A DNA stretch of 64,000 bases. Origin: a virus. Both the position numbers and the translations under genes were made by a program. The notes beneath the pieces are model-generated. The model did not search any database and had not been told where the DNA came from. It was given only the letters and a program-made list of their open reading frames with translations. This document shows, piece after piece, positions 36,404 to 55,132 of the stretch (its first letter is position 1; the number at the start of each line of letters is the position of its first letter). The DNA is taken from IMG/VR virus record IMGVR_UViG_3300010354_000053, positions 1 through 64,000 of that record; one strand, written 5' to 3'.

Positions 36404-36545
36404 GATTCTTCCTCGTTCTAATAATATTACCCCATATTTACATAAAGCCAACTGCTTAAAATAAGGGGAAGAAATACATCCAAATAAAATACCTAACTCA
36501 GGGGAAAAGTTTAATGGTAACTTTTATAAGATTGGAGAACCTGCC

Positions 36546-36809: not shown

Positions 36810-37072
36810 TTTACTTATACGAATTGATCAATCCGATGTATCGAGACATATCATTAGAAGATCACGGCCATCCATTTTTTATTATAAATGCACCCGTTTA
36901 TGAACCAGAATCTGTTATGCCATCTATCTCTCTTTCTACAAAAGTCAAGTTTCAACGTCTAGTTGAAAAGTTTGAAACAATGGACCAGCTGGCCGACTAT
37001 GTTATTTCTTGGGATACAAACAATGAGCCGTATAAAAACGCACTGTTAAATGAACTAACAAAAGAAGTATAA
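36806..37072 (+). CDS. Hypothetical protein
   Basis: ATGA overlap; immediately upstream of dnaE. Confidence 0.65.
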   Translation: MIYLYELINPMYRDISLEDHGHPFFIINAPVYEPESVMPSISLSTKVKFQRLVEKFETMDQLADYVISWDTNNEPYKNALLNELTKEV

Positions 37073-37073
37073 A

Positions 37074-40007
37074 ATGTCACATTTTAAGTTGTTTGATTTT
37101 ATTGATCAGCATCCAGAAGAAAAACGTCCGTGGAGTAACCGTTGGAAAAATAAAAAAATTTGCGCAAACCTTCATTGCCACTCTCATTTTTCTCTAGATG
37201 GGGGTTCGACTGTCCAAACTATGGTTGAACGGGCAGTAGAACTAGAATACACGCATTTTACACTTTCCGAACATGGAAACGTCAACAGCGCAGTAGCGTT
37301 ATACCGCGAGGCTGAAAAAATAAACAAAAAAGGGAATAAAATAAAGCTATTTCATTCGGTGGAAGCTTATATCCGACATCCTAAAGATGAAAAATCTACC
37401 CATATCACAATAGGATTTAAAACTAGCGCAGCGTTCCAAAAATACTGCGAGCTAACGCACATACTGTATGACGAGAAGCACATGGAGGTTAAATGGGGTG
37501 ATGTTAAACCCGTTATGACTACCGAGCATCTTGAAGAACTAGCTCCCCTTGGGATTGTCATAGGAACGGGCTGCATCGGTTCGTTCTTTAACTACCCCAT
37601 TTATAAACACGGTAATGTTAAGGAGTCACGTGAGCGCCTTGAGTGGGTTATGAGTTTAGTTGGAAGAGATAACATTTACGACGAGTGGATTGTAGATGAC
37701 CTTAGTAAATATTACGCGCCCGCTAAAGTTGAAGAAGGCAAAATTATCAAAGAAGCAGCGCTTGAGCTTAACGAGTGCTCACCTCACCTCCTGCAGTATG
37801 GGCAGAATACCCCAAACATTGGCAAAGCTGTAAACAATGTGCGCCGTGATCATGTTACAGGCCCATTAAATATTAAGCCGATTGTTTCGCTGGATTCTCA
37901 TTACGCTCGCAAGAAAGATAAAGTAATTCAAGACTCTAAGAATTACGGTTCGGATTGGATTATGTCTAACTTCCAACATATGCGCGGGGCTGAAGAATAT
38001 GCATACGAGGCTAAAAAATACGGTGGGCTGGAAGATAAATTTATTGAAGAACTGCTAGATAATACCGAAGATTATGCAGAACAGTTTAATGGTTACGAAT
38101 TTGGACCTTCCAAAGAATGGATTATGCCAAATTACGAAGATTCAAATTTAAAGTGGATTGTTAATAAGATTAAATCAGAAAAACGTATTAATCTAGATGA
38201 AAAAGATTACGCAGACCGTCTTAATTATGAAATTAAAGTCCTTGGCAACAATGGTGTATTTGATGGCTTGGCATATTTAAGAACAGTTAGTGAGATTTGC
38301 GACGAGGCAGAAAAACGAAATATTCTTGTTAATACCCGTGGTTCGGCTGGTGGTAGTCTTTCTTATTTTGCCGTAGGCGCATCTGTTACAGATCCAATTA
38401 AATATGACTTACAATTTGAGCGGCACATCACACTAGGCCGTATTAAATCTGGTTCCTTGCCGGACTGCGATTTGGATTTCGATGTTAAAGACGAAGCTCT
38501 AGCTATGATTTACGAAATGTATCCAAACAGAGTATTACCTATCTCAGTAAACCAAAACCTTAAACCACGATCTGCTATTAAAGATGCTGAACGATTTATT
38601 CTTGGCGCCGTGCGGCAAGAAACAGAAATCTTGACAAAGTCAATGCCAATTGTTCCACAAGGAAAAGATGAAACTGAATGGCTGTTTGGCTATGAAGACA
38701 TTGAAACTGGTGAGCATATTCAAGGATATTTTGAAACTTCTCAAGAACTGCAAGCATATGCTGCAAAAAATCCAGAAATTTGGATGATGGTTGAACAAAT
38801 GTGCGGAGTTATGCGGCAAAAATCTTCACATCCATGTGGGCTTATTGTTACACCTACCGAAAGTAAATACTGGCTTCCAGTGTGCCGCGTTGGAGGAAAA
38901 AATGGTGCGCTTGTAACTGCATGGTGCCCAAAAGATTTGGAATGGTACAAAGCAGTAAAGTTTGATGTTCTTGGTGTTAAAAAAATGCAAACAATCAAAA
39001 AAACATTTGAACTAATTAAGCAACGCCATGGGATTGATTTAAAATGGGGTGAGTTTGATCACAATGATCAAGTATTTGAAAATATTTACCATACCGGTAA
39101 AACTGATGCGACGTTTCAAACAAATACTTCCGGCATTCGTTCTCTGTGCGTAAGAACTAAGCCAAAAAATATTGTGGATATTTCCAACTTAATTGCTTTG
39201 TATCGTCCATCGACAATTGACTGGCAGATGCATTTGCAGCCATCGGAAGAGCGGCCAAGTGGATTCCATGGCAATGCCATGGAATTTTATGTGCAATGTT
39301 CTGCAGGCAATCAGAGACCTTATTACATTCACCCCTCGCTCGAACCAATTTTTGGTTCTACGTTTGGTGTGCCACTGTTTCAGGAGCAGATTCTAAAACT
39401 AGCTCGAGAAGTTGGTGGTTATTCATTTGAAGAAGCTGAAAACTTACGACGAGGTATTGGTAAAAAAGATAAAAAACTGATTAACGAGATTTTGGACGAT
39501 ATGGAAAAACGTATTATTACAAAAGATTCTTCTTGGGCTGAAAACCAATTGCACGAATTACGCGAGATGGTTATTGCGTCCGCACGTTATGGGTTCAATT
39601 GTGCCCATAGTACATCTTATGGAATTGTTTCTTATGCTACAGCGTGGCTAAAAAATAACTACCCTCTAGAGTTTTGGACTGCAGAACTTAGTGTTGAATA
39701 TGGAGACGAAGACAAATTGAGAGAATATTCTCAACTTATTTCTGACAAACTTTTGCAGCCTTCAGTCCTTCATTCCGATACAACAGATTTTGTCATTGAA
39801 GGGGACAAGATTCGCGTACCTTTGTGTGTTTTAAAAGGAGTTGGGGAAGAAGCCGCAAAAGCCGTCAAAAAACTTATGCATAATAGTTTAGAGGAGATTG
39901 GTTTAACCAAAAAGCCACAAGTGGTCAAAAACTCAAGAGAATCAACTAAACGTGCAAAAGTACTTAGTGACCAAAAATCGGATGATAATTTGTTGTCGCT
40001 CGGGTAA
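37074..40007 (+). CDS. dnaE: DNA polymerase III alpha-like, N-terminal/catalytic part (PHP, palm, thumb, fingers, start of HhH)
   Basis: HCHSHFSLDG, SEHGN, SLDSHY (PHP); RGSAGGSL, FER, PDCDLDF, HPCG, KFDVLG, ALYRP, FQEQ, YGFNCAHSTSY, LKGVGE. Confidence 0.95.
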   Translation: MSHFKLFDFIDQHPEEKRPWSNRWKNKKICANLHCHSHFSLDGGSTVQTMVERAVELEYTHFTLSEHGNVNSAVALYREAEKINKKGNKIKLFHSVEAYIRHPKDEKSTHITIGFKTSAAFQKYCELTHILYDEKHMEVKWGDVKPVMTTEHLEELAPLGIVIGTGCIGSFFNYPIYKHGNVKESRERLEWVMSLVGRDNIYDEWIVDDLSKYYAPAKVEEGKIIKEAALELNECSPHLLQYGQNTPNIGKAVNNVRRDHVTGPLNIKPIVSLDSHYARKKDKVIQDSKNYGSDWIMSNFQHMRGAEEYAYEAKKYGGLEDKFIEELLDNTEDYAEQFNGYEFGPSKEWIMPNYEDSNLKWIVNKIKSEKRINLDEKDYADRLNYEIKVLGNNGVFDGLAYLRTVSEICDEAEKRNILVNTRGSAGGSLSYFAVGASVTDPIKYDLQFERHITLGRIKSGSLPDCDLDFDVKDEALAMIYEMYPNRVLPISVNQNLKPRSAIKDAERFILGAVRQETEILTKSMPIVPQGKDETEWLFGYEDIETGEHIQGYFETSQELQAYAAKNPEIWMMVEQMCGVMRQKSSHPCGLIVTPTESKYWLPVCRVGGKNGALVTAWCPKDLEWYKAVKFDVLGVKKMQTIKKTFELIKQRHGIDLKWGEFDHNDQVFENIYHTGKTDATFQTNTSGIRSLCVRTKPKNIVDISNLIALYRPSTIDWQMHLQPSEERPSGFHGNAMEFYVQCSAGNQRPYYIHPSLEPIFGSTFGVPLFQEQILKLAREVGGYSFEEAENLRRGIGKKDKKLINEILDDMEKRIITKDSSWAENQLHELREMVIASARYGFNCAHSTSYGIVSYATAWLKNNYPLEFWTAELSVEYGDEDKLREYSQLISDKLLQPSVLHSDTTDFVIEGDKIRVPLCVLKGVGEEAAKAVKKLMHNSLEEIGLTKKPQVVKNSRESTKRAKVLSDQKSDDNLLSLG

Positions 40008-40305
40008 GGGCAGGAAACCTAAGTCATACTTTTTATGGTGGCGTTCAAATTTTCCTAGTTGGAATAATATCAAAAAGTATAAAATGCCAACCCGAATAAA
40101 TAAAAAAAATTTACATCACGGCAACCTTGGGTTGCCGCGGTTTTTTTGGGTGATGTTAACAGATTCTAAAGGACAAATTATTTCGTATGAAGAAATAAAA
40201 AAAGAATCTATCTTCGAAACAAATTCAAAGATAGATCTTTTAGAATTCTTAGCGGATAATAAATTTCCGTCACAAATTTTAGATGTTTTTATGTCAAAAC
40301 TCTAA
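39982..40305 (+). CDS. Hypothetical protein (start uncertain)
   Basis: ORF fills the gap between dnaE and the lysis cassette but contains a terminator-like hairpin. Confidence 0.3.
   Translation: MIICCRSGKGRKPKSYFLWWRSNFPSWNNIKKYKMPTRINKKNLHHGNLGLPRFFWVMLTDSKGQIISYEEIKKESIFETNSKIDLLEFLADNKFPSQILDVFMSKL
40119..40147 (+). terminator. Rho-independent terminator candidate downstream of dnaE
   Basis: CGGCAACC-TTG-GGTTGCCG stem followed by CGG and T7. Confidence 0.55.
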
Positions 40306-40848
40306 TTTTAGACCCAGCCCTAAACTTTTATCTTTAAATCCATATCCAGTTTCTAGCCAGAGCGGGCCATATACTCGAAGGCCGAGATTTAACTGAAGGT
40401 TTAATTCTTCGGCTGGTTTTGTTGTTAATAATTTATCAATAGGCTTTTCAGCCATTAATCCAGCAGAATATTTAGATAAATTTTGTTTTTGAATTACTTC
40501 AGTTTCTTTCTTTGTGCTTTCTTTTTCTTTGGTTTCTTTTGATTCTTTTTTATTTTTGTCTGTAGTTTCTTTTTGTTTTTCTTTTGTTTTTGATTCTTCT
40601 TCTGTTATTTCTACAACTTCTCCGTTTGGTTTTGTGACTTTCTTAGTTTTTTTCTTTTCCCATTTTTTTGATTCGTATTCTTTTTTGAGTCGTTCGCGCT
40701 CTTCCGCAATCACCTTTTCTGTTTTTTCTTTATCAACAACTATAACTTCTTTAATTTGAATATCTGGTGCCGGTCGTCGGCCATAACCGATTGCATAGCC
40801 ACCGACTAAACACAAAACTGCTGCAACGATATATTTTTTTTCAAACAT
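40294..40848 (-). CDS. Membrane-anchored protein in the spanin position of the lysis cassette
   Basis: N-terminal hydrophobic helix, Lys/Glu-rich linker, C-terminal amphipathic beta strands ending in Phe; overlaps the endolysin stop. Confidence 0.55.
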   Translation of the reverse strand: MFEKKYIVAAVLCLVGGYAIGYGRRPAPDIQIKEVIVVDKEKTEKVIAEERERLKKEYESKKWEKKKTKKVTKPNGEVVEITEEESKTKEKQKETTDKNKKESKETKEKESTKKETEVIQKQNLSKYSAGLMAEKPIDKLLTTKPAEELNLQLNLGLRVYGPLWLETGYGFKDKSLGLGLKLEF

Positions 40849-41293
40849 ACGGGTTCTTCTTTTGTAGATCTTTCCATGTTAGATTTTGAGGATTATATTC
40901 AAAATGGGCGGTTTCTTTAAATTTCTTCCAATTACCAGCCCACCTTAGACCCTTTGATTCAAGTATAGGCTTTACAAGACTCCAAACTTTACGATAAAGC
41001 TTTTCATCCCAAATAATCGCCCCCTTTTTGTCAACAAAATGAAAATCGCCGGCTAAACGATAATTGTGCGTAGACTGACCGCCTTTTGCATTTGTAACAA
41101 TTTTTCCTGGCTCGGTTCGACCTAGTGCATAAAGCTTGTCTTGATCTTCAGGCGCTCTATAGCCAGAATGACACTGCATGTTTAGCCCATTAGCATATGC
41201 AGTTTCTAGCATTCGAGACATAACTTCTTGGGCGGGCGGAATCAACTCAGCTAGAAGTTTTTTTGTTCTTTTGTCCATTTCCAGCATACTCAA
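40841..41293 (-). CDS. Endolysin, peptidase M15 (L-Ala-D-Glu peptidase-like)
   Basis: SGYR..EDQDKLYALGRT.PG.IVTNAKGGQSTHNY.LAGD..WAGNW..ETAHFE. Confidence 0.9.
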   Translation of the reverse strand: MSMLEMDKRTKKLLAELIPPAQEVMSRMLETAYANGLNMQCHSGYRAPEDQDKLYALGRTEPGKIVTNAKGGQSTHNYRLAGDFHFVDKKGAIIWDEKLYRKVWSLVKPILESKGLRWAGNWKKFKETAHFEYNPQNLTWKDLQKKNPYV

Positions 41294-41486
41294 TATCCTC
41301 TTTCTGGTTCATGCGAGGTTCTTTGTATGCTTTTTCTACACCATTCACAGCAGCCAATGCAATGGCTACAGACGCAATCGAGTTTGCAACATCCACATCA
41401 TTAACAAATCCTAGAATTGCTAAAATTGTGATTGTATAAAACGCAATTGCAGTCCGCCTGCAACCATTAAATGGTGTTAATAACAT
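41247..41486 (-). CDS. Putative holin
   Basis: 79 aa, two hydrophobic segments, charged C-terminal tail, directly upstream of the endolysin. Confidence 0.6.
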   Translation of the reverse strand: MLLTPFNGCRRTAIAFYTITILAILGFVNDVDVANSIASVAIALAAVNGVEKAYKEPRMNQKEDIEYAGNGQKNKKTSS

Positions 41487-41983
41487 TACTTATATTTCTT
41501 CTTTAATAAAGAATGAGCCTTTTTAAGAGCTTCTGCACTTCCAAACCCTTGTTTTTTAACTGGTTTGTCGTTTACAGATTTTTCTTCGCCCATTCTTTCA
41601 GAATAATCACCTATCACATCAGACTCTGGAATTTCTCCGGCGACGGCGCCTTCTTTTGGTTTTTTTGGCAAAGCTGGATTTTTTGTTTGCTCTGCAGATT
41701 TTTCCATATCTTCTGTTTTTGCCATTGCAGTTTGTGATGACGTTTGCACCAAGGCGGGATTAGGTTCCATGCCTGGCATTGAACCGCCGGCTGGCATAGC
41801 CTGTTTTTGTAATTCTGTAGCTTTTTCCATACGTAGTTTATTAAAAACCTGAGCACGATCTTCAGCATCAACTTTTGGGATAACTTCATTAACTTTAGCA
41901 GGGCCTTTAATTTCTTCTACCGCTTGATCAACCGACAATCCTTTGCACATTTTGTGCATTTTTTTAAGATGTTGAACGCTCAT
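41486..41983 (-). CDS. Hypothetical charged, low-complexity protein
   Basis: GGAG RBS before the ATG at 41983; TAATG coupling to the holin. Confidence 0.65.
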   Translation of the reverse strand: MSVQHLKKMHKMCKGLSVDQAVEEIKGPAKVNEVIPKVDAEDRAQVFNKLRMEKATELQKQAMPAGGSMPGMEPNPALVQTSSQTAMAKTEDMEKSAEQTKNPALPKKPKEGAVAGEIPESDVIGDYSERMGEEKSVNDKPVKKQGFGSAEALKKAHSLLKKKYK

Positions 41984-42078
41984 TTTTTTCTCCAAAAAAA
42001 CCTTGACTTTTAATGAAATTAATGCCATTGTCTTATATTAGCAAATCGCTAGTATAAATTATACACTTGGAGTCGCCT

Positions 42079-43002
42079 ATGGCAATTGATTTAAGCAAAA
42101 TGACGTTTGGCGCTGAACTAGAACTTGGCGATGTTGATACAAAAATTATTCTGCCGCTAGGTAATAGATGGTGTGATAAAGATGGATCTATTTGTAATTC
42201 CAATGGAACTGCAAACGATCCGAAAAAAGTTTTTAATCGGTATGGTGGTGAGATTCAAATGAAGCCTGAAAACTCTCCGGAAGAGTTGCTTCGAGCCACT
42301 AAAGAAATCTACGACCTTCTGCCTAAAAAACACTTTAACTTTACCACTAATTTGCATGTTCATATTCGTATTCCCGGACTTAAGGATGACTTAGAGGCCC
42401 TAAAGAAAATTGCTGCGTATCTTCGTAAATATGACGAAGAAATTTATGAACTTATAGACCCAAATCCATTCCCAGAACGACAACTTAAATTTTCCAATCC
42501 TGACTTTTACAACGGCGCAGTCTCGAGATGGCGTCGTCGTAATAAGTCACATAGGTATCGGGTGACAGAAAAAGTTCATAAATTAATGATGAACGCAAAA
42601 TCACCACGCGAGTTCTACGAGGCTCACGCCCCTAAAAATCGTTTTGGACAACCAATGTGGCATGTTGTGGTCAGAGCCGGTGTGAATCTCAAACAAGTAT
42701 TTGAAGATACTGAAACTATTGAGTTTCGGCATTTTACAATGTCACCAGATCTAAATAAGATGTTGTCGGCATATAAGTGGCCTAGGCTTCTTATGGAAGC
42801 AATTTTTGTCACGGGGCACACACCGAAGCAGATTTTAGAAAACAATCCAGACTTGGTATTCCAAAATTTTCATCCGTATGATCACGAACTAGATAAAATC
42901 TTTAGGCAAACCAATGTTTACCATAACAAACGTTCCGAAGTGCGGGAAAACTATAAACGTTTAATTGAGCAGGGCCTAGTTGACGAACAGACTCTTTATT
43001 GA
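42079..43002 (+). CDS. Putative amidoligase (COOH-NH2 ligase-type) enzyme
   Basis: TFGAELE, DGS, GGEI, LHVHI and TIEFRHF motifs. Confidence 0.75.
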   Translation: MAIDLSKMTFGAELELGDVDTKIILPLGNRWCDKDGSICNSNGTANDPKKVFNRYGGEIQMKPENSPEELLRATKEIYDLLPKKHFNFTTNLHVHIRIPGLKDDLEALKKIAAYLRKYDEEIYELIDPNPFPERQLKFSNPDFYNGAVSRWRRRNKSHRYRVTEKVHKLMMNAKSPREFYEAHAPKNRFGQPMWHVVVRAGVNLKQVFEDTETIEFRHFTMSPDLNKMLSAYKWPRLLMEAIFVTGHTPKQILENNPDLVFQNFHPYDHELDKIFRQTNVYHNKRSEVRENYKRLIEQGLVDEQTLY

Positions 43003-43009
43003 GGATTGC

Positions 43010-43462
43010 ATGAAAGTTTTATTTATTTGTACGGGTAACAAGTTTCGTAGTCCAACTGCGGAACATATTATGAAATGCCTAGCCCCGCATTTAGAAGTTA
43101 AATCGGCTGGAACAGCGGAAGGCGCTCATAAAAACTATTTAATGGCCAAAAAAATGCGTCGTTGTTTAATTGAATTAGGTTATCCTGAGCCCGCAATACG
43201 TTCTCAGCATCTGACGGCGGAATTAATGGAGTGGGCAGATATTGTTTTATATATGGCCCCTACACATTTCAACTATATGTACAAAAATCATGTCCAATTT
43301 ATACATAAATGCAGGCCGCTCTACACCGTCCTGCCAGACCTTGATTTAAAACGAATTGAAGACCCTGCTTTTATTAAAAAGCATGAAGATGTTATGGAAG
43401 TAACTAAAATTATTGAAGATTCGATTAAAAAAATACTAAACGATGAAGCAAAACTAATTTAA
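43010..43462 (+). CDS. Low-molecular-weight phosphatase (LMW-PTP/ArsC fold)
   Basis: VLFICTGNKFRSPTAE (CX5R), SAGT, WADIVLYM, IEDP. Confidence 0.9.
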   Translation: MKVLFICTGNKFRSPTAEHIMKCLAPHLEVKSAGTAEGAHKNYLMAKKMRRCLIELGYPEPAIRSQHLTAELMEWADIVLYMAPTHFNYMYKNHVQFIHKCRPLYTVLPDLDLKRIEDPAFIKKHEDVMEVTKIIEDSIKKILNDEAKLI

Positions 43463-43692
43463 ACTTCGGAATTACCGATCTTATTCTTTTGACGAGAACC
43501 TGTTGGAATAGATGTACCCGGAAGTTTAGGAGCTTCTGGCATTTTTATTTCTGAAGTTTTAACTGTAGTTTTTTTAGAAGTAGAAGATACAGAACCGTCA
43601 AGAATTTTGTACATTCTGTCTTGTACAGTTTCTGCAGGTGTGGATTTAGTCATTTTCTTGCACAGTTCGACTATTTCTAACAGTTTGTTCAA
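43459..43692 (-). CDS. Hypothetical protein
   Basis: Last ORF of the minus-strand operon; likely start at 43653. Confidence 0.45.
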   Translation of the reverse strand: MNKLLEIVELCKKMTKSTPAETVQDRMYKILDGSVSSTSKKTTVKTSEIKMPEAPKLPGTSIPTGSRQKNKIGNSEV

Positions 43693-44182
43693 GTTCGGCC
43701 TCTGTTACAATCCAAGGTGGTACGCAAACCATTTTATGCTCTATTTTACCATATTGGATATTAGATAAAAAAGGCTTCATGAGTTCTTGTTCATCTTGAT
43801 GGCGATTTTCTTTAATATAACCAATGTTATCGATATTTTTATCCAGTAATTTAGACATACAAGCCATACAAGGCTGAACACTCACAATAAATTGGTATTT
43901 ATGGATATTGATTGTTTGAATCATCTTTTCCAGAAGATCTGTCTCCGCATGGCGAATTAAGAATTTTTTAGCAGGATTTTTATCAATATTTAACTCGGCA
44001 AGAGCTTTTGAATTTTTTTCAAAAGCAGAAATTATCTTGTTAACGCCATAAGCAATAACAGAATTTGTGGATGTATCTACAGCAATTGCGACTACCTGAA
44101 CTAGAGGATCACTACTTCGTTTTTTAAGAACGTCAAATAGGATCTCGGTACTAACTACAGGGAAGGAGCCGTAGACAAACAT
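43646..44182 (-). CDS. dCMP deaminase-like zinc-dependent deaminase
   Basis: RSSDP..QV, HAE and PCMAC motifs. Confidence 0.8.
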   Translation of the reverse strand: MFVYGSFPVVSTEILFDVLKKRSSDPLVQVVAIAVDTSTNSVIAYGVNKIISAFEKNSKALAELNIDKNPAKKFLIRHAETDLLEKMIQTINIHKYQFIVSVQPCMACMSKLLDKNIDNIGYIKENRHQDEQELMKPFLSNIQYGKIEHKMVCVPPWIVTEAELEQTVRNSRTVQEND

Positions 44183-44793
44183 TCTTTAATTCCTTGTTGT
44201 AGTTTTTGTACTACTTGTTCGGGTGAATCTTCAAAATCTACTTTTACGAGAGTAACAGGAGCGCGACATAAATCCAAGAAATAACCTACGCACATCTTTG
44301 CCCTATCCATAAACACTTGAACATTATTGAATGTCAAGTCAGGAAGTCTTTCTTCAACAATACCAGCATTTTTTCTTCGCAAAGAAAGACGTTCTCTAAT
44401 CTTTTCTACAGTAAAATCGTAGTGTACAACAACGACTTTAATGTCTTCTTTATGGCGATATTCATTAACCATTTCTACCCAACGAGACGTAGACATAACG
44501 CCATCGATAATAACTGTATCTGACAGCTCGAGAGCATCAAAGAAACCTGTTCTAACTAGCGATGGTGTAGTTATGGAATCTGTGCCAGAATTTTTATTAC
44601 CAACCAAAACACAATTATCATATTGAACAATACTATATTTCTGCTCAATTGTAGCTCCCCTGTTGGGCATACGTTTTTTAATAAATTTACCCATTTTAGA
44701 AATTTCTTTGCCATCTCCTTGGCAAAAAGTATTTCTGGTGGTGGTTTTGCCGGTTGCACCTGCGCCCATTAGAAAAATTGCTACTTTAGTCAT
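44155..44793 (-). CDS. P-loop nucleotide kinase, 5-hmdU DNA kinase-like
   Basis: GAGATGKTT Walker A, GTD motif, VIIDG, ERL..RR lid; neighbours an amino-acid:DNA transferase-like gene. Confidence 0.65.
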   Translation of the reverse strand: MTKVAIFLMGAGATGKTTTRNTFCQGDGKEISKMGKFIKKRMPNRGATIEQKYSIVQYDNCVLVGNKNSGTDSITTPSLVRTGFFDALELSDTVIIDGVMSTSRWVEMVNEYRHKEDIKVVVVHYDFTVEKIRERLSLRRKNAGIVEERLPDLTFNNVQVFMDRAKMCVGYFLDLCRAPVTLVKVDFEDSPEQVVQKLQQGIKECLSTAPSL

Positions 44794-45160
44794 GAAAGCC
44801 CTCAATATACTCTTGATTTGTTTTATGGCATTTAAAACAAATTCTGTTTCCGTTTGGTGAAAAGAAAACATTGTTGCATTTTAAACAATTTCTATTTTTT
44901 GCAATGGCAGAACCGTGTTCTGAAAAAAACTTCTCGTCCGCTTTTCGTAGTTCTTCCATAAGCTGTTTGTGTCGCTCTTTACGTCTATTTGACGTTCGCT
45001 CTTTATTCTTTTTTATTTTTTCTGTTAAATCAATCCAGTTTAAATTATGTTGAATAACATAATTTTGCATGAATGATTCATGATTATCAATGGATGGTAC
45101 TGGAATATTGAGAGTTTTGCAAAACATTTTTAATGTAATTTTAGTTTCATTAACAATCAT
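44786..45160 (-). CDS. Hypothetical protein with C-terminal zinc ribbon
   Basis: CLKC..F...NRICFKC. Confidence 0.65.
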   Translation of the reverse strand: MIVNETKITLKMFCKTLNIPVPSIDNHESFMQNYVIQHNLNWIDLTEKIKKNKERTSNRRKERHKQLMEELRKADEKFFSEHGSAIAKNRNCLKCNNVFFSPNGNRICFKCHKTNQEYIEGFHD

Positions 45161-45170
45161 TACTCTGCCC

Positions 45171-45500
45171 TTATTCTAATTCAGCACCCATGTCTACGAT
45201 ACCTTCTTTCTGCAACAACGAAAGGGCTAACACTCGTTTAGAATCTGCAAAATTTCTTGTTTCATTGAAGGCACTGCGAAAAGTTTGCAGAACTTCTTGA
45301 GCAGCTTTAAATTCCGAATTAGCTTCCATTTCTTTCTTTGCCTTCAAAACATGCGCATTCTGTTCTGCAATGATCTGTTTTAGTTTATCGACGTTATAAG
45401 TTTTTAGCATTTGCAATTCATCGTAAGAATAATTCTTTACAAACGCTTTTTCAATATCACTCAGATGGCTGTACTTATTTGACTTACTCTTCTTTCTCAT
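45171..45500 (-). CDS. Hypothetical coiled-coil protein
   Basis: GGAGG RBS; ATGA overlap with the upstream gene. Confidence 0.65.
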   Translation of the reverse strand: MRKKSKSNKYSHLSDIEKAFVKNYSYDELQMLKTYNVDKLKQIIAEQNAHVLKAKKEMEANSEFKAAQEVLQTFRSAFNETRNFADSKRVLALSLLQKEGIVDMGAELE

Positions 45501-46360
45501 TTAACATCCTCCACAAAAAGTAATTGTTTCGTTTTAATGTATGCAGTTTTTTCTTTTACTGAAAAATGGTGTTGTAAAAACTTATGATCAAATTCACATT
45601 CATCTATTAAATTCCAAAATACGTTATCTGAATACAATTCTGGTTTTTTAAGAACTAAAAATTCATTAATGTCATGTCCAACTACATAACTCCCCTTGTG
45701 CAGTATTTTAGGCACTTTACACAAACAGCTTTCTACTTGACCAATCGGCGCGTTCCAAATTTTTGATAAATTCCAACCCAAAGCTTCCCATTCTGGGATT
45801 ATGTCTTTAGTAAATTTTTGATTAATACCATATAGGTAACGAAGTCCAAATACTGGTCCAGTATTTTTGTTAGGATCAGAGCTTTCGATTCCTAACCCAT
45901 TAATACGAAAGCTTTTATATCCAAGCGTTTGATCCATGAGTTCACAAGTTTTATAGCAGGCCCAATCACCAAAATATGGAATAGTCTTGAATAACTCTCT
46001 TCCGCTGTTAAAATCTAACTGCTCTGTTTTAAGCGTTGATTCAACTGTTAACCATCTATCAAAAGCTTTTTCAAAATTTTCAGTTCGTCGCACTTGTGGT
46101 GTTCGACCACGTTCCATTCCAAACTTACTGATTTTTTCAAACATCTGAATGGGTGTTTTACCTTCAGCAATTCCCCGCATGAATAAAACCATGCTTTCGA
46201 TAGAATAGTAATATACGTACATGAAAATTGCGGTTTCGGGGTCAAATTTTTCGTGATTAATAATTGATTTTAGAAAAGGATAAACAGGGTCAACATCTTG
46301 TGTGCGAATTAAAGCTAAGCTAGCCTTCTCGAAATCAGAAAAGTTAAATAGATGTTGCAT
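45497..46360 (-). CDS. Amino acid:DNA transferase-like protein (aGPT-PPlase clade 2; HhH-glycosylase fold)
   Basis: DVDPVY, GMER, FGDWACYKTCE, GP..GL, VESCLCK and Y.VGHDINE match my recollection of the family motif series. Confidence 0.75.
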   Translation of the reverse strand: MQHLFNFSDFEKASLALIRTQDVDPVYPFLKSIINHEKFDPETAIFMYVYYYSIESMVLFMRGIAEGKTPIQMFEKISKFGMERGRTPQVRRTENFEKAFDRWLTVESTLKTEQLDFNSGRELFKTIPYFGDWACYKTCELMDQTLGYKSFRINGLGIESSDPNKNTGPVFGLRYLYGINQKFTKDIIPEWEALGWNLSKIWNAPIGQVESCLCKVPKILHKGSYVVGHDINEFLVLKKPELYSDNVFWNLIDECEFDHKFLQHHFSVKEKTAYIKTKQLLFVEDVK

Positions 46361-47249
46361 ATAAATACTCTTGAACGCCGTCAGCAAGTTCTTTAATGTA
46401 TGTTGGAGCATGGCGTAAGCCGTTTGCAGATTTTGGAGTTACATACATACAATTACCTTCTTGAATAAACGCATGTAAATAGTCTTCCATATAAGCTGGC
46501 CTCCAGCCTGTTTTTGGCTCTCCCGTTATTTCAATACTTACCTGGCCATTGGTTACTTTAGAAATATGCTCAATAATTTTTTGAATTTTATCTTTAATTT
46601 CTAAATCTTTTTGTTCTTTTTGATAAATAAAATGAGTACCAAGATAATAGGCATCGGTAGTGGGTTTTGGATATAGATACGCATTAATAAAACGACCTTC
46701 TTTTGCATTTAAACAAAATCTTGGATAACGATCAAATACTTCTCCGCTTGGCTTGCACTCTACCGACCATCCCCAACGATAATCGGTAGGTTTATATTTA
46801 TGAAAACCATTAGCGTGAATAATAAGGCGATTTGTTGGAGTTTTATTTATGCGAGAAGAAAAGAAAAAATCTTGGGTAAACTGCACAAACGCTTGTACAT
46901 TAACATGCATTGATTGTTTGTTTAAAACTTTAATATTACCTATAGTTTGCACGTACCTGAGTTCTTTAGAATTATTATGATGCGGAATGCTTTTTTGGGT
47001 ATATCCGTAAGGGACAGCTTCTGAAAAAAGAATAATTGGTCTGCGGTCTGTTTGGCTGAACGATTGTAGCCAAAGGTTATAATTAATTGCATCTAGCTCT
47101 TCACCTGATGGGTAAATACACCCAGTACTTGCCTTCCATGCACCGGGTGAATCGTCGTCTTCCCACGAAAACATAATTTTTCTACTAGTAAGCTCCCAAG
47201 CAAGAAGTGAACCAATCAATCCAAAGCCTTTAATATGTACTGTAGACAT
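46344..47249 (-). CDS. FAD-dependent oxidoreductase (glycine oxidase / DAO-like)
   Basis: N-terminal GFGLIGSLLAWEL Rossmann motif, AWKASTG, HANG, GWRP, NGLRHAP. Confidence 0.8.
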   Translation of the reverse strand: MSTVHIKGFGLIGSLLAWELTSRKIMFSWEDDDSPGAWKASTGCIYPSGEELDAINYNLWLQSFSQTDRRPIILFSEAVPYGYTQKSIPHHNNSKELRYVQTIGNIKVLNKQSMHVNVQAFVQFTQDFFFSSRINKTPTNRLIIHANGFHKYKPTDYRWGWSVECKPSGEVFDRYPRFCLNAKEGRFINAYLYPKPTTDAYYLGTHFIYQKEQKDLEIKDKIQKIIEHISKVTNGQVSIEITGEPKTGWRPAYMEDYLHAFIQEGNCMYVTPKSANGLRHAPTYIKELADGVQEYLYATSI

Positions 47250-47265
47250 TTTTTAATTCCCGATT

Positions 47266-47736
47266 TTAGTACGGACCAAATGCTCCTCCGCCTCCGCGGC
47301 GCCGCGATGGCACTGCATTCTGGCGTTGTTGTTCTTCCCACTCCCTCTGCAACTCCTCTTGTGTTGCCGTTAGTACTGGCGACGGCGTGCGTTGATTCGC
47401 CGCCGTTGTCCCGTTTCCCACAGGTTGCTGCTGTTTTGGTGTAGGAGAAGAAAGATTTTGGTTAATTCGTTGCAATACTTCCACTACAGGATTGCTAGAA
47501 ATTTCTTTAAACAGAGCCGCTAGCTTTACTGCCTTTTCTTCTACTTCGGATATTGCTTTAGCCGTTTCTGGATTGTTATTTTCTAGTAATTGCTCCAGCA
47601 CAATGTTTAGGCTTTTTTGAATATGCCCCCAAAGAAATTCTCCGCTAGGAAGGGTCAAAATGCCCTCTTTAAGAGCTTCATTCTCGAGAGCCGATTGAAC
47701 ATCGCTCAGTAATTTAATTTTTTCTTTCTTGTCCAT
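47266..47736 (-). CDS. Hypothetical protein
   Basis: GAGG RBS; lies directly after recA. Confidence 0.65.
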   Translation of the reverse strand: MDKKEKIKLLSDVQSALENEALKEGILTLPSGEFLWGHIQKSLNIVLEQLLENNNPETAKAISEVEEKAVKLAALFKEISSNPVVEVLQRINQNLSSPTPKQQQPVGNGTTAANQRTPSPVLTATQEELQREWEEQQRQNAVPSRRRGGGGAFGPY

Positions 47737-47737
47737 A

Positions 47738-48826
47738 TCATCCCTCGTAAATATCAGCATTCATAGCAATACCCATGTTTTTTGAAGTAAATACTTCTTG
47801 CTTGATTTTGGCGTATAGGTTTTCATCCATTTTGACCAAATCTACAAACTTAGACATATTTCCCCCCTTGATTCCAAGCTCCTCCGGGCCAAAATAAATT
47901 GTGTTTCCTGTTTCTTTTTTATAGAGAACACCGAGATTAAGAGCTAGCTCAACAAGTTCTTCGTATTGGTTAGCTAGTTCGCCACTTTCCATATTTAACC
48001 AGAATTCAGCAGCTTTGCCCTCGACAGTAAGGCGCGTTTTATTAACTTTGCAGCGAACCTTAGAACCGACTGCAATATTCTTGCCTTGGCCGTCTTTGGA
48101 TTCGGAGACCAGCTTGTCCTTCATGCCAGTTGCCTTTTCCAAAAAAATAATAGTCGAGCATAGGTGTTTTAGCCGTTGACCGCCAGTAAGCACCCATGGA
48201 TAGTACTTAGCCATACGGGTATCGAGGTTTGCCATAGCATGGTTAGTAAGCACGACCAACACTTCGCACTCGTTAGCAATACGGTTTAATACGTTTAAGG
48301 CTGGATTGATGCTTTTAGAAATACCACCGTATCCATTAGCAGCACCGCTAACATCGCCTTCTTCCATTGCCCCCTGTTCGCCAAGTGCAGTAAGAGCTTT
48401 AACGGAATCAAGGACAATTGCGCAACAATCCTTGTTTTTTTTGATTTCCTCTTCTGCCTTAGCTAGAGGCTTAATAGCACCTTCAAACGTGTTTGATTGA
48501 ATAACTACCAGACGGTCGAGATCAACACCTAAACTGGCTGCACGTTCGGGGTTAAACGCATATTCTGTGTCGATAAATATGCCGTATTTAGTTGGATTCA
48601 TCCGCTGTTCTTGTGCAAGCAGCTTTAGAGCCATAAGACTTTTACCCGAGCCGGGTGAACCCCACAGCATAACTAGTTCACCGACCGGAATACCACCGCC
48701 TACGGCCCAGTCAAATGAAACCGAACCGGTAGAGCGAACTTGTTTTTGTTTATTAGAAAATTCTTTGGCTACGGCTACTCGCTCCATTTTTAACATTGAC
48801 GATAAATAACTTGGTAGTTTTGACAT
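47738..48826 (-). CDS. recA: RecA/UvsX-like recombinase
   Basis: STGSVSFDWAVGGGIP, GSPGSGKS, FIDTE, LGVD, IVLDSV, TGG.RLKH. Confidence 0.92.
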   Translation of the reverse strand: MSKLPSYLSSMLKMERVAVAKEFSNKQKQVRSTGSVSFDWAVGGGIPVGELVMLWGSPGSGKSLMALKLLAQEQRMNPTKYGIFIDTEYAFNPERAASLGVDLDRLVVIQSNTFEGAIKPLAKAEEEIKKNKDCCAIVLDSVKALTALGEQGAMEEGDVSGAANGYGGISKSINPALNVLNRIANECEVLVVLTNHAMANLDTRMAKYYPWVLTGGQRLKHLCSTIIFLEKATGMKDKLVSESKDGQGKNIAVGSKVRCKVNKTRLTVEGKAAEFWLNMESGELANQYEELVELALNLGVLYKKETGNTIYFGPEELGIKGGNMSKFVDLVKMDENLYAKIKQEVFTSKNMGIAMNADIYEG

Positions 48827-48834
48827 TTATTACC

Positions 48835-49305
48835 TCATGCACGGATGCTGATATTGTTAAAGTTAGTACGGCCATAAATATTTTTCTTAACATCATCTAT
48901 GGAAATTGATAGCACTGAACGGACTGAAGATAAATAAGAATAAACGCTCTCCCAATATGCTTCATCCTCTTGTGCCATTTGATATTCTGGTTGAATACAA
49001 ATAAATGCCTGTTTATCTTTTTCTGTGGGTTTTTGTAGATTTTTTTCAGCCGCCCATTCGGGGAATTTTTCAATTCGTAATACCGATTCAATTCGTTCCT
49101 TTTCAATCTTTGATTTAGACAAAGAGTATTGTGCTTTAGTCATTAGCTCAGAAATGGCAAGCAGTCCTTCACGCATTGACTGTAAAAACACAGGAGCGTC
49201 GTGTTCGCTAACTTGCACAGATTGTTTGCTCTTTGCAATAAAAGGAGCAAGTTGATTAGCGATCATGTTCATTTGATCGCGCTTAGAAACAACTTCTGAT
49301 GCCAT
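48835..49305 (-). CDS. Helical protein, possible UvsY-like recombination mediator
   Basis: Lies between SSB and RecA; long helices with KPTE..K.AFI...PEY. Confidence 0.45.
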   Translation of the reverse strand: MASEVVSKRDQMNMIANQLAPFIAKSKQSVQVSEHDAPVFLQSMREGLLAISELMTKAQYSLSKSKIEKERIESVLRIEKFPEWAAEKNLQKPTEKDKQAFICIQPEYQMAQEDEAYWESVYSYLSSVRSVLSISIDDVKKNIYGRTNFNNISIRA

Positions 49306-49322
49306 ATGTCCACCTAATATAT

Positions 49323-49350
49323 AAAAAAACCGACCAAATGCATGGTCGGT
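49323..49350 (-). terminator. Rho-independent terminator after ssb
   Basis: ACCGACCA-N6-TGGTCGGT stem with a T-run on the minus strand. Confidence 0.75.
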
Positions 49351-49373
49351 CAAAAACAAATTATTGAGTACTA

Positions 49374-50291
49374 TTAGAAGGGATTCCAGTTCTCATCATC
49401 TGTGCTGTCAAAATCAACAGATGCAGAACTTGCAGCCGGCTTACTACTACCTTCTTCTCCACTGTTAGCAGATTTGCGGAGTAAACGTTCAGGAAGTTCT
49501 GTGCCACCAGACGCAACAAATGCAGCCATTTCATCTTCACTCCAAAGGCGAGAAGCAAACATTTGCACTAAATCGATCATCTTTTCTGGATCTTTGAGGC
49601 GATCTTTAACAGAATTAGGGAGTGTTTGCTCATAAAGCATTTCGGTTTTTTGGCGACCAACCATCTTTGATTCAACGCAAAGATCTGCGGAATAACGAGT
49701 GTCGAGCTTTTCTCCAGTTTTATTTAATACCATCCAACCAGTAGGCTCAGAAGGATTGTAAACTTGTGCGTTATAATCTTTAAATTTATGCACAACACCA
49801 CTGATTTTTTTGCCGGCGTCACCAAAGATAGACTTGATCAACGAAGTTTTAGCATCAAGTACCGAAATCTTGTCGTCGCCGCGAAGAACAACAAGAACAG
49901 AGAATCTACGTTTTTGCTCAAAGGATTTAGCAAGCGTAGAGTGGTTCAAGTATTTTTCATGCATCTTATGACCAGGGGCTTTAGCACCCATTTCTTCGAG
50001 CTTGACGGCTTCATCGCGGTGCTTCCAATGAGCATCGCAGATAGAACACGTTTTGCCAACAGAGCGAGGGCATGGAATACGCATGTATTCACCATTCAAA
50101 GTGTATTCATGGAAATGGTTTTCTGCGTATGGACGAGGTTTACCAACATGTTGATTAACAACTACACGCAACGTAAGTGGCCAAGTAGTGTTTTTAGCAC
50201 CGCCAACATAGTTGATTTTTTCGCGTTGTTCTTTTTGTTTACCAACAGAGAAGTCTTCATTTTCAAGAAGTGAATAATCAAAATTTTCCAT
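49374..50291 (-). CDS. gp32-like single-stranded DNA-binding protein
   Basis: H.H..CP....CSIC zinc site, KTGEKLDTRY, acidic tail DFDSTDDENWNPF. Confidence 0.75.
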   Translation of the reverse strand: MENFDYSLLENEDFSVGKQKEQREKINYVGGAKNTTWPLTLRVVVNQHVGKPRPYAENHFHEYTLNGEYMRIPCPRSVGKTCSICDAHWKHRDEAVKLEEMGAKAPGHKMHEKYLNHSTLAKSFEQKRRFSVLVVLRGDDKISVLDAKTSLIKSIFGDAGKKISGVVHKFKDYNAQVYNPSEPTGWMVLNKTGEKLDTRYSADLCVESKMVGRQKTEMLYEQTLPNSVKDRLKDPEKMIDLVQMFASRLWSEDEMAAFVASGGTELPERLLRKSANSGEEGSSKPAASSASVDFDSTDDENWNPF

Positions 50292-50304
50292 TTTACGGCT
50301 CCTT

Positions 50305-50931
50305 TTAACGGTATTGAAATTTAGCTAGCGACGGATTCATTGAATTATTAGCAGCAGCGGTTACTCTTGATAACTCGATGCCTTCTTCGATTGTTTTGAT
50401 CACGGTTGCAATTTTTTCTTCTTGCGACTTTTTACCACCCCCTTTTGGTACGGCAATTACGGTTCTTGACAAACGACTATTAAGTGGTGTGCGTCGAAAT
50501 GTGTAAAATACGTTTGATTGTAGCTCACCAGTTCTAAAAATTTGAGAAACGCTAATGTTATCTTGTTGCAAAGTTAGATCTTCTACGATTCGCATAAAAT
50601 CACGATTGCTTTCAATTTTTTTAGAAACTCGACTCGTATCAGGGGTTCTGCGAAGAGCTGTCGTGCCGGAAAATAATTTAAGGCAATTAGCAAAAAGGAC
50701 GTTCGCTTCAGTTGCAGAAATTTCAAATGGCATCTCTCTACTTAGAGATGCCGCGTATCCTTTTGTTTTCATTTCTTCCGCCATTTGAATTGCGTAATCA
50801 GAAACGTATCCAAGTTGGATGGGTGAATATTTTTCAACACCTTGAATAATAACTTGAGCTTCATCTTCTTTAAGATCTGATAAATCTATGATTACTGGAA
50901 TTGAATAAGAACGGTCGTACATAACGGTCAT
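50305..50931 (-). CDS. Hypothetical protein
   Basis: GGAG RBS, ATGA overlap. Confidence 0.65.
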   Translation of the reverse strand: MTVMYDRSYSIPVIIDLSDLKEDEAQVIIQGVEKYSPIQLGYVSDYAIQMAEEMKTKGYAASLSREMPFEISATEANVLFANCLKLFSGTTALRRTPDTSRVSKKIESNRDFMRIVEDLTLQQDNISVSQIFRTGELQSNVFYTFRRTPLNSRLSRTVIAVPKGGGKKSQEEKIATVIKTIEEGIELSRVTAAANNSMNPSLAKFQYR

Positions 50932-51383
50932 TTTTTTCTCCTAGACGGTTTCTTTGGTTTTCGCCTTGCTTTATTTTCAACAATACTTTTTTGTTTATGA
51001 CAAGGAATACATTTTACGGTTAGTCTTGATAATATGTGTTGTTTGGTTTCATCAGTTATGTTTTCCTCATCAAAAAAATCTATGCCAACAAACATTCGAT
51101 CAACATATGTATTCCAATCTTTCCATCCAGAAATCTCAATTACTGGATCTTCATGATCTACCTGTATTTCTTTATAATCGAAAATTTTATTACAGGAGCA
51201 ACACTTATACTTAACTCTTTTTGCCTTGCTCTCTGTTCCGTCTTTTTTAGATGCTTTATATGGAATTTTGGCATTTTCTAAAACAAGTTTTTTGATTGGA
51301 CTAATAGAAAATAAACGCCGAATTGCAGAAATTAACGACGCTCTTAATACCCACTTACGTTTCTTTTTAGATTTCTTTGCCAT
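50928..51383 (-). CDS. HNH-type endonuclease
   Basis: YKCCSC..IQVDHEDPV..KCIPCHKQKS. Confidence 0.75.
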   Translation of the reverse strand: MAKKSKKKRKWVLRASLISAIRRLFSISPIKKLVLENAKIPYKASKKDGTESKAKRVKYKCCSCNKIFDYKEIQVDHEDPVIEISGWKDWNTYVDRMFVGIDFFDEENITDETKQHILSRLTVKCIPCHKQKSIVENKARRKPKKPSRRKK

Positions 51384-51401
51384 CTATTGATGGTAATAAA
51401 T

Positions 51402-52205
51402 TTAAATTGAAAAGTCGATGATATCTTGTAGATTAAAATATGGTTTTTTCGTAAAACTACTTACGCCAACTTTTCCCACAAATAAACAAAGTTTATGGCG
51501 ATAAGAACCTAGCTTTTTACTTATTTTAGGATCGTATTCAAATACTTTCTTTTTTATACCAGAAACTGGATCATCGACTAGCCGATCTTTTGGCCACATA
51601 CGCACTCGAACATCATCGCTGCCATCAAAGATAGAAACTTCAATAAATTCTTTACCATCATACTTTTTAGTGGCATATCCATTAAAATAACCAAAAAATG
51701 CTTTACGCCACATGCCAGTTTTTACCGAAAATTCAGATATTGTCCCCTTGTAGTTTTTAGCTATTGCTACACGGTCTTCTACTTTCTGGCCATTTTGATC
51801 AATAGTAAATTGGCGAGCGAATGGAAACACTTCGGCAAATTCTTCTTTAGTAGGTTTAAAGCCCAGTTGCTGTAGCGCAGATTGATATACATTACAAAAG
51901 TTAATGGAAAAAATTGGATTAAAATCAGCCAACCACAGCTGACGATCAAAGTCAGACGTGATTTTTTCCATAGGAATGCGTTGGTCTTTGATCTTTGGAA
52001 AACCGGCGGTAGACTTACACGCCTTTTTAAGTTGCTCAACAGCCGCAAATCTCTGGTCTACTGTAAGTGGTTCTGGAAAGCAGTCGTCAAATGCACCACT
52101 CATGATCATAGTTATAATTGGCGAAACCATAATTTTAATTTCGCCGGTTTCATAATTCTGTTTTACGTCCTTAACTTTCGCTAAAAAGTCTTCCCATTTA
52201 CTCAA
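51402..52205 (-). CDS. dnaE: DNA polymerase III alpha C-terminal part (post-HhH helices plus OB fold) encoded as a separate gene
   Basis: WEDFLAKV..MIMSGAFD, then OB-like FFGY..KKYDGKEFIEVSIFDGSDDVRVRMWP..LCLFVGKV; likely TTG start at 52205 with GAGG RBS. Confidence 0.7.
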   Translation of the reverse strand: MSKWEDFLAKVKDVKQNYETGEIKIMVSPIITMIMSGAFDDCFPEPLTVDQRFAAVEQLKKACKSTAGFPKIKDQRIPMEKITSDFDRQLWLADFNPIFSINFCNVYQSALQQLGFKPTKEEFAEVFPFARQFTIDQNGQKVEDRVAIAKNYKGTISEFSVKTGMWRKAFFGYFNGYATKKYDGKEFIEVSIFDGSDDVRVRMWPKDRLVDDPVSGIKKKVFEYDPKISKKLGSYRHKLCLFVGKVGVSSFTKKPYFNLQDIIDFSI

Positions 52206-54195: not shown

Positions 54196-55132
54196 GTTTA
54201 CGTTCCTTCACATAGTCAGAAAAACGTTCGGTAAAACTTTTTGTATTTGCCTGTAACTTGCGCTGTGTTTTTTCTTGATGATCTTCCGCAATGAATTTAA
54301 ACTTAACTTGCTTAGCCAATTTTTTATATTCTTTTGTTTTCTTAAACGCAATAATGTTAAACGATGTATCCTTGATAACAATGCGATATTCGTTTACAGG
54401 ATCAATCTGGAATTTATTGACGTCTTCAATTTTTATTTCACGTGTAACAAACTTTGGCATTTGTAAGTCAATAGCCTGAATAACTTTATAATTTTCATTT
54501 TTAATGTCAATTAAAAAAACAAACTTTTCTTCATCTTCACTAAATCGATGTTGGCATGGAGTTCCGGGGTACCAAATTAAATTTCCTACGGTGTGTTCAC
54601 CATGGATGTGTCCACTAATCACCTTGCACGATGGAAGCTCATCGCCATGTTCACTTTTTAACCCAGCTTCCATCAAACAGCCTTTGAATTCTTGATGAGC
54701 AAACAATAAAGTTTCTCTTCCTGATAACATCTCCATGGCTTTATGGAATGCTCCGGGAGGGCAATAAGGAATAAAACCGACGTGTGTATCATCAATACAA
54801 TCATATATAGGATGATCAACCACAACGTAATTTGGAGTGTTTTTAAATGGCGCAAGAGCATGAAATCTAGGTAAGAAAGTCTTGCTATCGTTCATTTCAT
54901 GGTTGCCAAGAATATGGACAATCTTTACATGGCTGTTTGCGCTTAAAAACTCAGAAAAAATAGTGAGGCAATCATTACGAACAATATCGTGCTCGTCAAA
55001 CACGTCACCTAGTAAAACTACCATCTCAGGGTTAACTGAAGATATAGTTTCAGTTAACCGAGATAACAGCAACTCTGAACGCTTTAATCTGCGGTGTGTT
55101 AGATGGATGTCCCCGACTACTAAACAATTCAT
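54155..55132 (-). CDS. sbcD: SbcD/Mre11/gp47-like nuclease
   Basis: GDIH, LGDVFD, GNHE, AHQE, SGHIH, YPGTP. Confidence 0.9.
   Translation of the reverse strand: MNCLVVGDIHLTHRRLKRSELLLSRLTETISSVNPEMVVLLGDVFDEHDIVRNDCLTIFSEFLSANSHVKIVHILGNHEMNDSKTFLPRFHALAPFKNTPNYVVVDHPIYDCIDDTHVGFIPYCPPGAFHKAMEMLSGRETLLFAHQEFKGCLMEAGLKSEHGDELPSCKVISGHIHGEHTVGNLIWYPGTPCQHRFSEDEEKFVFLIDIKNENYKVIQAIDLQMPKFVTREIKIEDVNKFQIDPVNEYRIVIKDTSFNIIAFKKTKEYKKLAKQVKFKFIAEDHQEKTQRKLQANTKSFTERFSDYVKERKLEKSYQFIFDKLP

Follow-up and report, generated by a model that had tools for sequence, protein, structure and literature searches.

A phage DnaE split without an intein, with one helix-hairpin-helix motif on either side of the break

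In a 64,000-nucleotide (nt) stretch of viral DNA (positions 1 to 64,000 of the IMG/VR record IMGVR_UViG_3300010354_000053, hereafter the window), the C-family DNA polymerase DnaE is encoded by two genes that lie 11.4 kb apart on opposite strands. The large gene specifies a catalytic chain that ends after the first of the two helix-hairpin-helix (HhH) motifs of the DNA-binding domain, and the small gene, which lies directly behind an sbcC-like gene, very probably specifies the missing C-terminal part of the same enzyme, with the second HhH and an oligonucleotide-binding (OB) fold (Table 1). An intein-free split of this kind had been proposed in an earlier note made from the sequence alone, and it has held up: both open reading frames (ORFs) lie exactly where the note placed them, the catalytic one indeed devoid of the second HhH (GAFD) and of an OB fold, while profile homology, contiguous coverage of DnaE by the two products, conserved synteny and the lack of any intein or intron all agree with it. 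Neither outcome that the note would have counted as a refutation came about, since DnaE homology was detected and the split recurs in independent assemblies. The IMG/VR record from which the window comes (G000) comprises 104,757 bases and is estimated to be 64% complete.

Table 1. Genes and other features discussed in the text. Positions are those of the window unless another record is named; aa, amino acids; bp, base pairs.
Feature	Position	Strand	Remarks
dnaE catalytic subunit	37074..40007	+	977 aa: PHP, palm/thumb, fingers, first HhH, then charged tail
small subunit	51402..52205	-	267 aa from TTG 52205; second HhH, helical linker region, OB fold
terminator-like GC hairpin and T-run	40119..40147	+	~110 nt past the dnaE stop codon; hairpin 40119-40137
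recA-like recombinase	47738..48826	-	Pfam RecA, E 1e-24; far end of the conserved gene string
terminator-like hairpin	49328-49351	-	9-bp stem, T-run; between the SSB-like gene and o48835/recA
SSB-like protein	49374..50291	-	phrog_1607, E 2.6e-5, weak match; syntenic in all relatives examined
HNH-like protein	50928..51383	-	phrog_1985, E 4e-12; directly downstream of the small subunit
sbcC-like ATPase	52198..54195	-	Pfam AAA_23, SMC_N; stop codon overlaps the small-subunit start
sbcD-like nuclease	54155..55132	-	Pfam Metallophos; synteny
split-intein pieces of the relative G002	L010: 9953-12772, 12729-13754, 13726-14226		GFN..HS/C site

The product of the large gene (P0001) is recognised by Pfam as a succession of PHP domain (PF02811, residues 33-202, E 6e-23), palm (PF07733 DNA_pol3_alpha, residues 375-634, E 9e-37) and fingers (PF17657 DNA_pol3_finger, residues 638-814, E 2e-34), followed by a match to PF14579 (HHH_6) that covers only positions 4-42 of 90 (residues 893-932) and, at 22.5 bits, stays below the cut-off of 25.6. 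Only positions 40-888 of the 1190 in phrog_405 ('DNA polymerase') are covered, and the alignment with solved DnaE chains (E 2e-61 for 3E0D/2HPI) ends at residue 909 of 1220 in Thermus aquaticus and 849 of 1160 in Escherichia coli. Across 26 relatives, nine PHP positions (H34, H36, D42, H67, E97, H110, C167, D274 and H276), which we take to be the metal-binding residues of an active PHP exonuclease, do not vary, nor do the palm aspartates D464/D466, and it is because of this invariance that the large chain looks catalytically complete. Its C-terminal end reads ...LKGVGEEAAKAVKKLM, after which a stretch of ~45 residues, most of them charged, leads to the stop codon, so that the charged tail described in the earlier note is present; among relatives this tail is variable, basic in the near ones and acidic in others. 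In the dispersed clade (see below), a motif 'LE.LGL..KP' is kept in the tails of truncated DnaEs right after the first HhH (window 39900-40004; P0053-P0092), and some of the more distant truncated DnaEs end in acidic tips ('FDEYD', 'DAVE', 'NEVE') that recall SSB-type acidic tails; the conserved motif and the acidic tips could be docking peptides. The hairpin downstream of the gene, a pattern match from a consensus scan, has an 8-bp stem with 6 GC pairs and is followed by a run of seven Ts.

The small gene lies in an ORF that is open from TTG 52250 (51402-52250, -; product P0002), and its homologues start at residue 17-19 of this ORF. Read from TTG 52205, the protein begins L-SKWEDFLAKV...IMSGAFD, and the start, which has a GAGG 9 nt upstream, overlaps the sbcC stop codon (52198-52200), all as noted earlier; three relatives share both these start signals and an in-frame ATG at 52220, so that the gene starts at either 52205 or 52220. 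Its annotation today is that of an unnamed 'hypothetical protein' without Pfam or PHROG family. Neither tblastn of the small protein against 50,697 phage records nor BLASTP against the DnaE of Myxococcus phage Mx1 gave a match, and phmmer over 1.8 billion representative proteins returned 49 relatives (representatives at the 50% identity level), all of them stand-alone proteins of 128-348 aa. The alignment of this family (A1, 50 members) has the consensus W..FL.K...(HhH)...GAFD, then KALGS.A...LWR...NP...F, then a beta-rich C-terminal half with a conserved WP, and eight of the 50 members match PF01336, an OB family that Pfam also reports in full-length DnaE. AlphaFold2 models the protein (predicted local distance difference test score, pLDDT, 92; predicted template modelling score 0.84) as a helical half (19-140) and an OB barrel (~155-282), which bears out the OB-like C-terminal domain seen earlier in the sequence. 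The chain stops at the last OB strand, where hhalign reaches template column 227 of 323; there is nothing beyond the OB fold, and thus no C-terminal tau-binding domain of the DnaE1 type, nor is a canonical QxxLF clamp motif evident at the expected place in the small chain, which is occupied instead by the conserved W...NP...F.

That the small gene represents the detached C-terminal HhH/OB module of DnaE is strongly supported, and the support comes from sequence profiles and comparative genomics, not from fold searches. Residues 27-931 of P0001 align with residues 6-914 of the single-chain relative P0072 (1131 aa, 38% identity), and the A1 profile matches residues 934-1115 of the same protein (hhalign 93.6%, E 2e-7). 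When A1 is compared with the C-termini of 78 full-length single-chain DnaEs (MAFFT alignment, cut at the equivalent of P0001 residue 931), the match rises to 97.5% (E 8e-12, 205 columns), P0002 being aligned from residue 18, ~8 residues past the cut, to residue 282. Hidden Markov models (HMMs) give the same picture in fused phage DnaEs, where the small-subunit HMM matches directly after the catalytic part with E-values of 1e-34 to 1e-36: in L019 the catalytic HMM covers 11-928 and the small-subunit HMM 934-1192 (E 8e-36), in L012 they cover 17-937 and 942-1200 (E 1e-34). Coverage of the fused relatives by the two products is therefore contiguous and without overlap, and this outcome of a check suggested in the earlier note was seen in P0072, L019, L012 and the 78 DnaEs alike. 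The second HhH ('LIMSGAFD') is assigned to the small chain by hhalign, together with a non-significant match of the A1 profile, in PDB, to residues 871-907 of E. coli alpha (E 2.2), at the position where it would be expected. The tandem HhH of DnaE is thus complete only across both chains, the first motif being in the large and the second in the small one, the OB fold lies C-terminal to the HhH on the small chain, and no single polypeptide of the window holds all DnaE domains. A reading in which a short helix is duplicated across the break ('SLEEIGL' versus 'WEDFLAK') proved ambiguous and was set aside.

When IMG/VR was scanned with the catalytic chain, 80 related loci were obtained, and searches of their ORFs by HMM and of whole records by the A1 profile distinguish three states of the gene. 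Catalytic relatives down to ~33% identity are nearly all 930-1000 aa long and have no OB domain, the longer ones containing inteins, and inteins (PF14890) occur in many relatives of the polymerase clade. A fused single ORF of 1123-1436 aa is found in most loci (including G007/L019, L012, G006, G004 and G003) and also in P0072; the closest unsplit relatives of the window DnaE are phage DnaEs with 33-39% identity. The two split genes are adjacent and on the same strand in G005/L017, where they overlap by 14 nt, and in G009/L053, where a gap of ~100 nt lies between them. They are dispersed in the window and in four relatives: on opposite strands in G010 (88% identity; 15 kb apart), G008 (14 kb) and G002 (15 kb), and on the same strand, 62 kb apart, in G001. 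Every split genome examined has kept both genes. A FastTree phylogeny was built from 110 sequences of the catalytic part after intein inserts had been taken out. It unites every truncated DnaE in a single clade (support 0.996), next to which stands a fused sister group (L011/P0072); inside this clade the dispersed forms make up a monophyletic group (support 1.0) and the adjacent forms belong to the other subclade. The split clade is made up of uncultured phages with genomes of about 145-190 kb. Purifying selection on both genes is strong: against orthologues with 86-94% aa identity, the small gene has a proportion of non-synonymous differences (pN) of 0.03-0.09 and a saturated synonymous one (pS) of 0.71-0.75, the catalytic gene has a pN of 0.07 with synonymous sites likewise saturated, and pN/pS is ~0.04-0.12 for both. 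Taken together, homology, breakpoint, absence of an intein, conservation and order of arrangements establish a fission between the HhH motifs of DnaE that is stable across a phage clade.

The gene neighbourhood, compared by tblastn of window proteins against 20-kb stretches of related records, suggests how the present layout came about. In the fused G007 the order is sbcD-sbcC-dnaE-...-SSB-like-o48835-recA, in the adjacent-split G005 and G009 it is sbcD-sbcC-dnaE_N-small-HNH-like-...-SSB-like-recA, and in the dispersed G001, G008, G010 and the window it is sbcD-sbcC-small-HNH-like-o50305-SSB-like-(o48835)-recA. The exception is G002, in which only the small, HNH-like, o50305, SSB-like and recA genes were matched and no sbcC or sbcD was found in the stretch searched; in all other split genomes examined sbcC neighbours the small gene. 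The neighbours of the catalytic gene, by contrast, differ: it adjoins a baseplate-like gene in G000, G010 and G002 and the o55193/o57163/GroEL group in G008 and G001. Because only these neighbours vary among genomes, gene order indicates that the small gene kept the ancestral place and that it was the catalytic gene that left. This bears on another idea of the earlier note, which had taken the proximity of the small gene to SbcCD, SSB and RecA as a sign of coupling to recombination-dependent replication. Since whole dnaE holds the same place in fused and adjacent-split relatives, this location is inherited and therefore is not evidence of such coupling, and that part of the proposal has found no specific support. 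The SSB that the note had named in the string does stand as a syntenic gene, although its identity depends on a weak PHROG match, and because a terminator-like hairpin separates it from o48835/recA, the small subunit may not share a transcript with recA.

Other features of this neighbourhood are of interest in their own right. The HNH-like gene has counterparts in all the other split genomes examined, G001, G002, G005, G008 and G009 as well as G010 (28-37% identity, 80% in the near-identical G010), tblastn found no match to it in the fused G007, and from this distribution it behaves as a conserved resident and not as a mobile homing endonuclease. Within the block from dnaE_N to sbcD (window 36546-55132), G000/G010 and G008 (L014/L098) agree in gene order, but the flanks, a baseplate-like gene at one end and the o55193/o57163/GroEL group at the other, have changed sides; between these phages the whole block is therefore inverted with respect to its genomic surroundings. 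Further along, at 57846-59456 (+), lies a gene for a GroEL-like chaperonin (phrog_5725, E 1e-71) that has 55-86% identity to its counterparts in the three relatives whose searched loci include it (G010, G008 and G001) and a 35% match in the fused G007. On the other side of the catalytic gene, the structural region holds two very long ORFs, 27869-34840 (-, 2323 aa) and 16437-20168 (-, 1243 aa), both upstream of the baseplate-like gene (34853-36451, phrog_975).

The following scenario accounts best for these observations. The DNA-binding domain of a replicative C-family DnaE was broken between its HhH motifs, near the equivalent of E. coli residue 850, by gene fission, giving a large gene for a catalytically complete chain (PHP exonuclease domain, palm, thumb, fingers and first HhH) and a small gene for the second HhH, the helical linker region and the OB fold. 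Whole dnaE was ancestrally located between sbcC and the HNH-like, SSB-like and recA genes and was first split in place; later, the catalytic gene moved and was inverted, whereas the small gene kept its site and its translational coupling to sbcC. Non-covalent association of the two chains is most likely, which would rebuild the tandem HhH unit across the chain interface and bring the OB fold close to the template strand, its place in single-chain DnaE. We consider it probable that a heterodimer of the two chains is the working form of this polymerase, in which the catalytic chain would need its small partner.

Several points weigh against this scenario: (i) taken alone, the small protein has no significant match in Pfam or PHROG, and none among PDB sequences even at an E-value of 10, (ii) the structure matches of its OB fold are generic and not DnaE-specific, since the best hits of the whole model (VIA Z 8-9) are single-stranded DNA (ssDNA)-binding OB folds of the SSB, PriB and RPA type, with the PolC OB domain and Mycobacterium tuberculosis DnaE1 ranking lower in the lists, (iii) the helical half, although it folds well alone (pLDDT 93.8), has no Foldseek match and resembles best (Z 4.9) unrelated helical proteins, M. 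tuberculosis DnaE1 (5lew, residues 885-933) coming in at rank 16 with 22% identity, at the expected place in the chain but with a noise-level score (Z 4.3), (iv) the fused pair L019/L012 nests inside the split clade, if with weak support (0.61), and (v) an E. coli alpha subunit cut short at residue 917 retains polymerase activity. Given the nesting of L019/L012, a single fission would be the simplest reading of the tree, although not a proven one; because of the activity of the truncated E. coli enzyme, the large chain might, by analogy, work without its partner.

This last possibility is at the heart of the alternative that fares best, namely that the small HhH/OB protein, once detached, took up a DNA-binding role of its own as an accessory of the SbcCD/SSB/RecA recombination module, leaving the truncated DnaE to act alone or with host factors. 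Its attraction is that the small gene is translationally coupled to sbcC within a string of recombination genes, that its OB fold resembles those of SSB, PriB and RPA type ssDNA binders and that the catalytic chain has its full set of catalytic and PHP motifs. However, the place behind sbcC is ancestral for whole dnaE and not newly gained, the break falls inside the tandem HhH unit so that half of it is left on each piece, both genes are retained in every split genome examined, and the DnaE-specific 'GAFD' HhH helix is kept in the small protein under strong purifying selection. We therefore regard an accessory role as unlikely, while giving it some weight.

It is far less credible that the products are rejoined by a cryptic split intein or a trans-splicing RNA, as happens with DnaE in cyanobacteria. 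Inteins are common in the polymerase clade, and one relative, G002, has a true split intein in this very gene, but Pfam finds no intein domain in either product of the window, and the variable, charged tail of the large chain lacks a Cys/Ser with intein blocks A/B. Nor is there room at the start of the small subunit for a C-intein (~35 aa ending in HN) ahead of the conserved W, since distant homologues start only 1-5 residues before that residue; the upstream region of the small gene is sbcC coding sequence, and Rfam finds nothing in the window and hence no intron. With the genes 11.4 kb apart on opposite strands, joining by an intein, an intron or a frameshift is not possible, and programmed frameshifting was ruled out on the strand orientation. 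G002 serves as a positive control, for its split intein was readily recognised (PF14890, E 1e-5): the first piece ends in ...GFNRSHS/CVFS...TSDHRVW..., which contains intein blocks, the second begins with ~38 aa that end in ...VAHN/C and match PF14890, and a 341-aa ORF without Pfam match sits between the two intein pieces. The polymerase of G002 is thus in three pieces, with an intein at only one of the two breaks. As for an assembly artefact or a decaying remnant (a contiguous dnaE in the true genome, or a small ORF that is a pseudogene), the record is admittedly an incomplete metagenome-assembled contig, but the same arrangement recurs in six independent assemblies (L002, L003/L008, L004/L007, L014, L009 and L010) from different samples, which excludes misassembly, a concern raised at the outset, and, with both genes intact and constrained and with ~40 clusters of truncated DnaE and 49 small-protein representatives in existence, we give this explanation next to no credence.

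What the heterodimer would work with can be gauged from the rest of the replisome. No family B or A polymerase (PF00136/PF00476) passes the Pfam cut-off in G000, G010 or G001, the latter two being complete genomes, no family A polymerase is found in these three or in G008 and G002, and the sole family B signal among the five records is a sub-threshold PolB-like match in G002 (98% complete; 14.7 bits, E 6e-4). The split DnaE is thus the only detectable polymerase of the phage and, since no family A or B enzyme passes the cut-off, it must replicate the genome. A DnaB-like helicase is encoded beyond the end of the window, at 66153-66872 of G000, and no DnaN clamp (PF00712) is found in G000, G010, G001, G007 or G005; the replisome therefore seems to rely on the clamp and loader of the host, or on none.

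Comparison with known systems shows how this split differs from those described so far. The single-chain DnaEs of E. coli (2HNH/5FKU), T. aquaticus (2HPI/3E0D) and M. tuberculosis (DnaE1, 5LEW/7PU7) have the same domains from PHP to OB, in the same order and with the same catalytic residues, but the phage enzyme is cut between the HhH motifs into two genes on opposite strands and lacks both a tau-binding C-terminal domain and an evident QxxLF clamp motif. In cyanobacteria, dnaE-n and dnaE-c likewise are two distant genes on opposite strands; these and the 'fractured genes' rely on split inteins (Dassa et al., 2009, PMC2677866), whereas the phage break lies in the HhH domain and not in the fingers, no intein is involved and the products stay two chains. 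It is the three-piece DnaE of G002 that resembles the 'fractured gene' layout of that study. Closer in some respects are the group 2.2 jumbo phages, which also are large phages with an intein-free Pol III alpha from distant genes, in their case a minimal core made of stand-alone proteins, split inside the nucleotidyltransferase module and found together with a family B polymerase (Iyer et al., 2021, Viruses 13:63, PMC7824862); here, the large chain is a full PHP-palm-fingers unit, the break is in the HhH and no family A or B polymerase was detected. Actinophages such as Gordonia phage Suzy (gp64/gp65) have a DnaE annotated as two adjacent genes, likewise without intein, but there an N-terminal part of ~320 aa is separated from the polymerase core, and the genes sit side by side on one strand. 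In PMC12926913, a survey of bacterial polymerases from 2026, the DnaE architecture is drawn as PHP-Pol-HhH-OB with an optional C-terminal domain, and the passages of the survey on split, truncated, phage and HhH topics contain no description of an HhH/OB split. A full-text literature search, which was not exhaustive, found no description of a breakpoint between the DnaE HhH motifs.

These findings have implications for a family of enzymes that is treated as single-chain, and whose best-known natural split, in cyanobacteria, is repaired by an intein. One consequence, which we consider doubtful but worth stating, would be that the detached HhH/OB module has become a separately regulated, exchangeable subunit, expressed with the SbcCD/SSB operon, apart from the catalytic chain with its own terminator-bounded unit. 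If so, the phage could set the timing or the stoichiometry of its DNA-handling subunit, for example so that its only polymerase changes over from origin-dependent to recombination-dependent replication or back, or docks on the SSB or clamp of the host, and a polymerase held together non-covalently across a split HhH would be a natural model for modular C-family replicases. The split also matters for annotation, the small subunit being at present a 'hypothetical protein', and it offers a testable system for what the HhH/OB part contributes, be it DNA binding, processivity or partner docking. In a whole clade of phages the only detectable DNA polymerase is maintained in the form of two chains, with the cut within the tandem HhH unit and, since the fused, adjacent-split and dispersed stages are all extant, the clade clearly illustrates how a gene can undergo fission in nature and one of its parts then be relocated.

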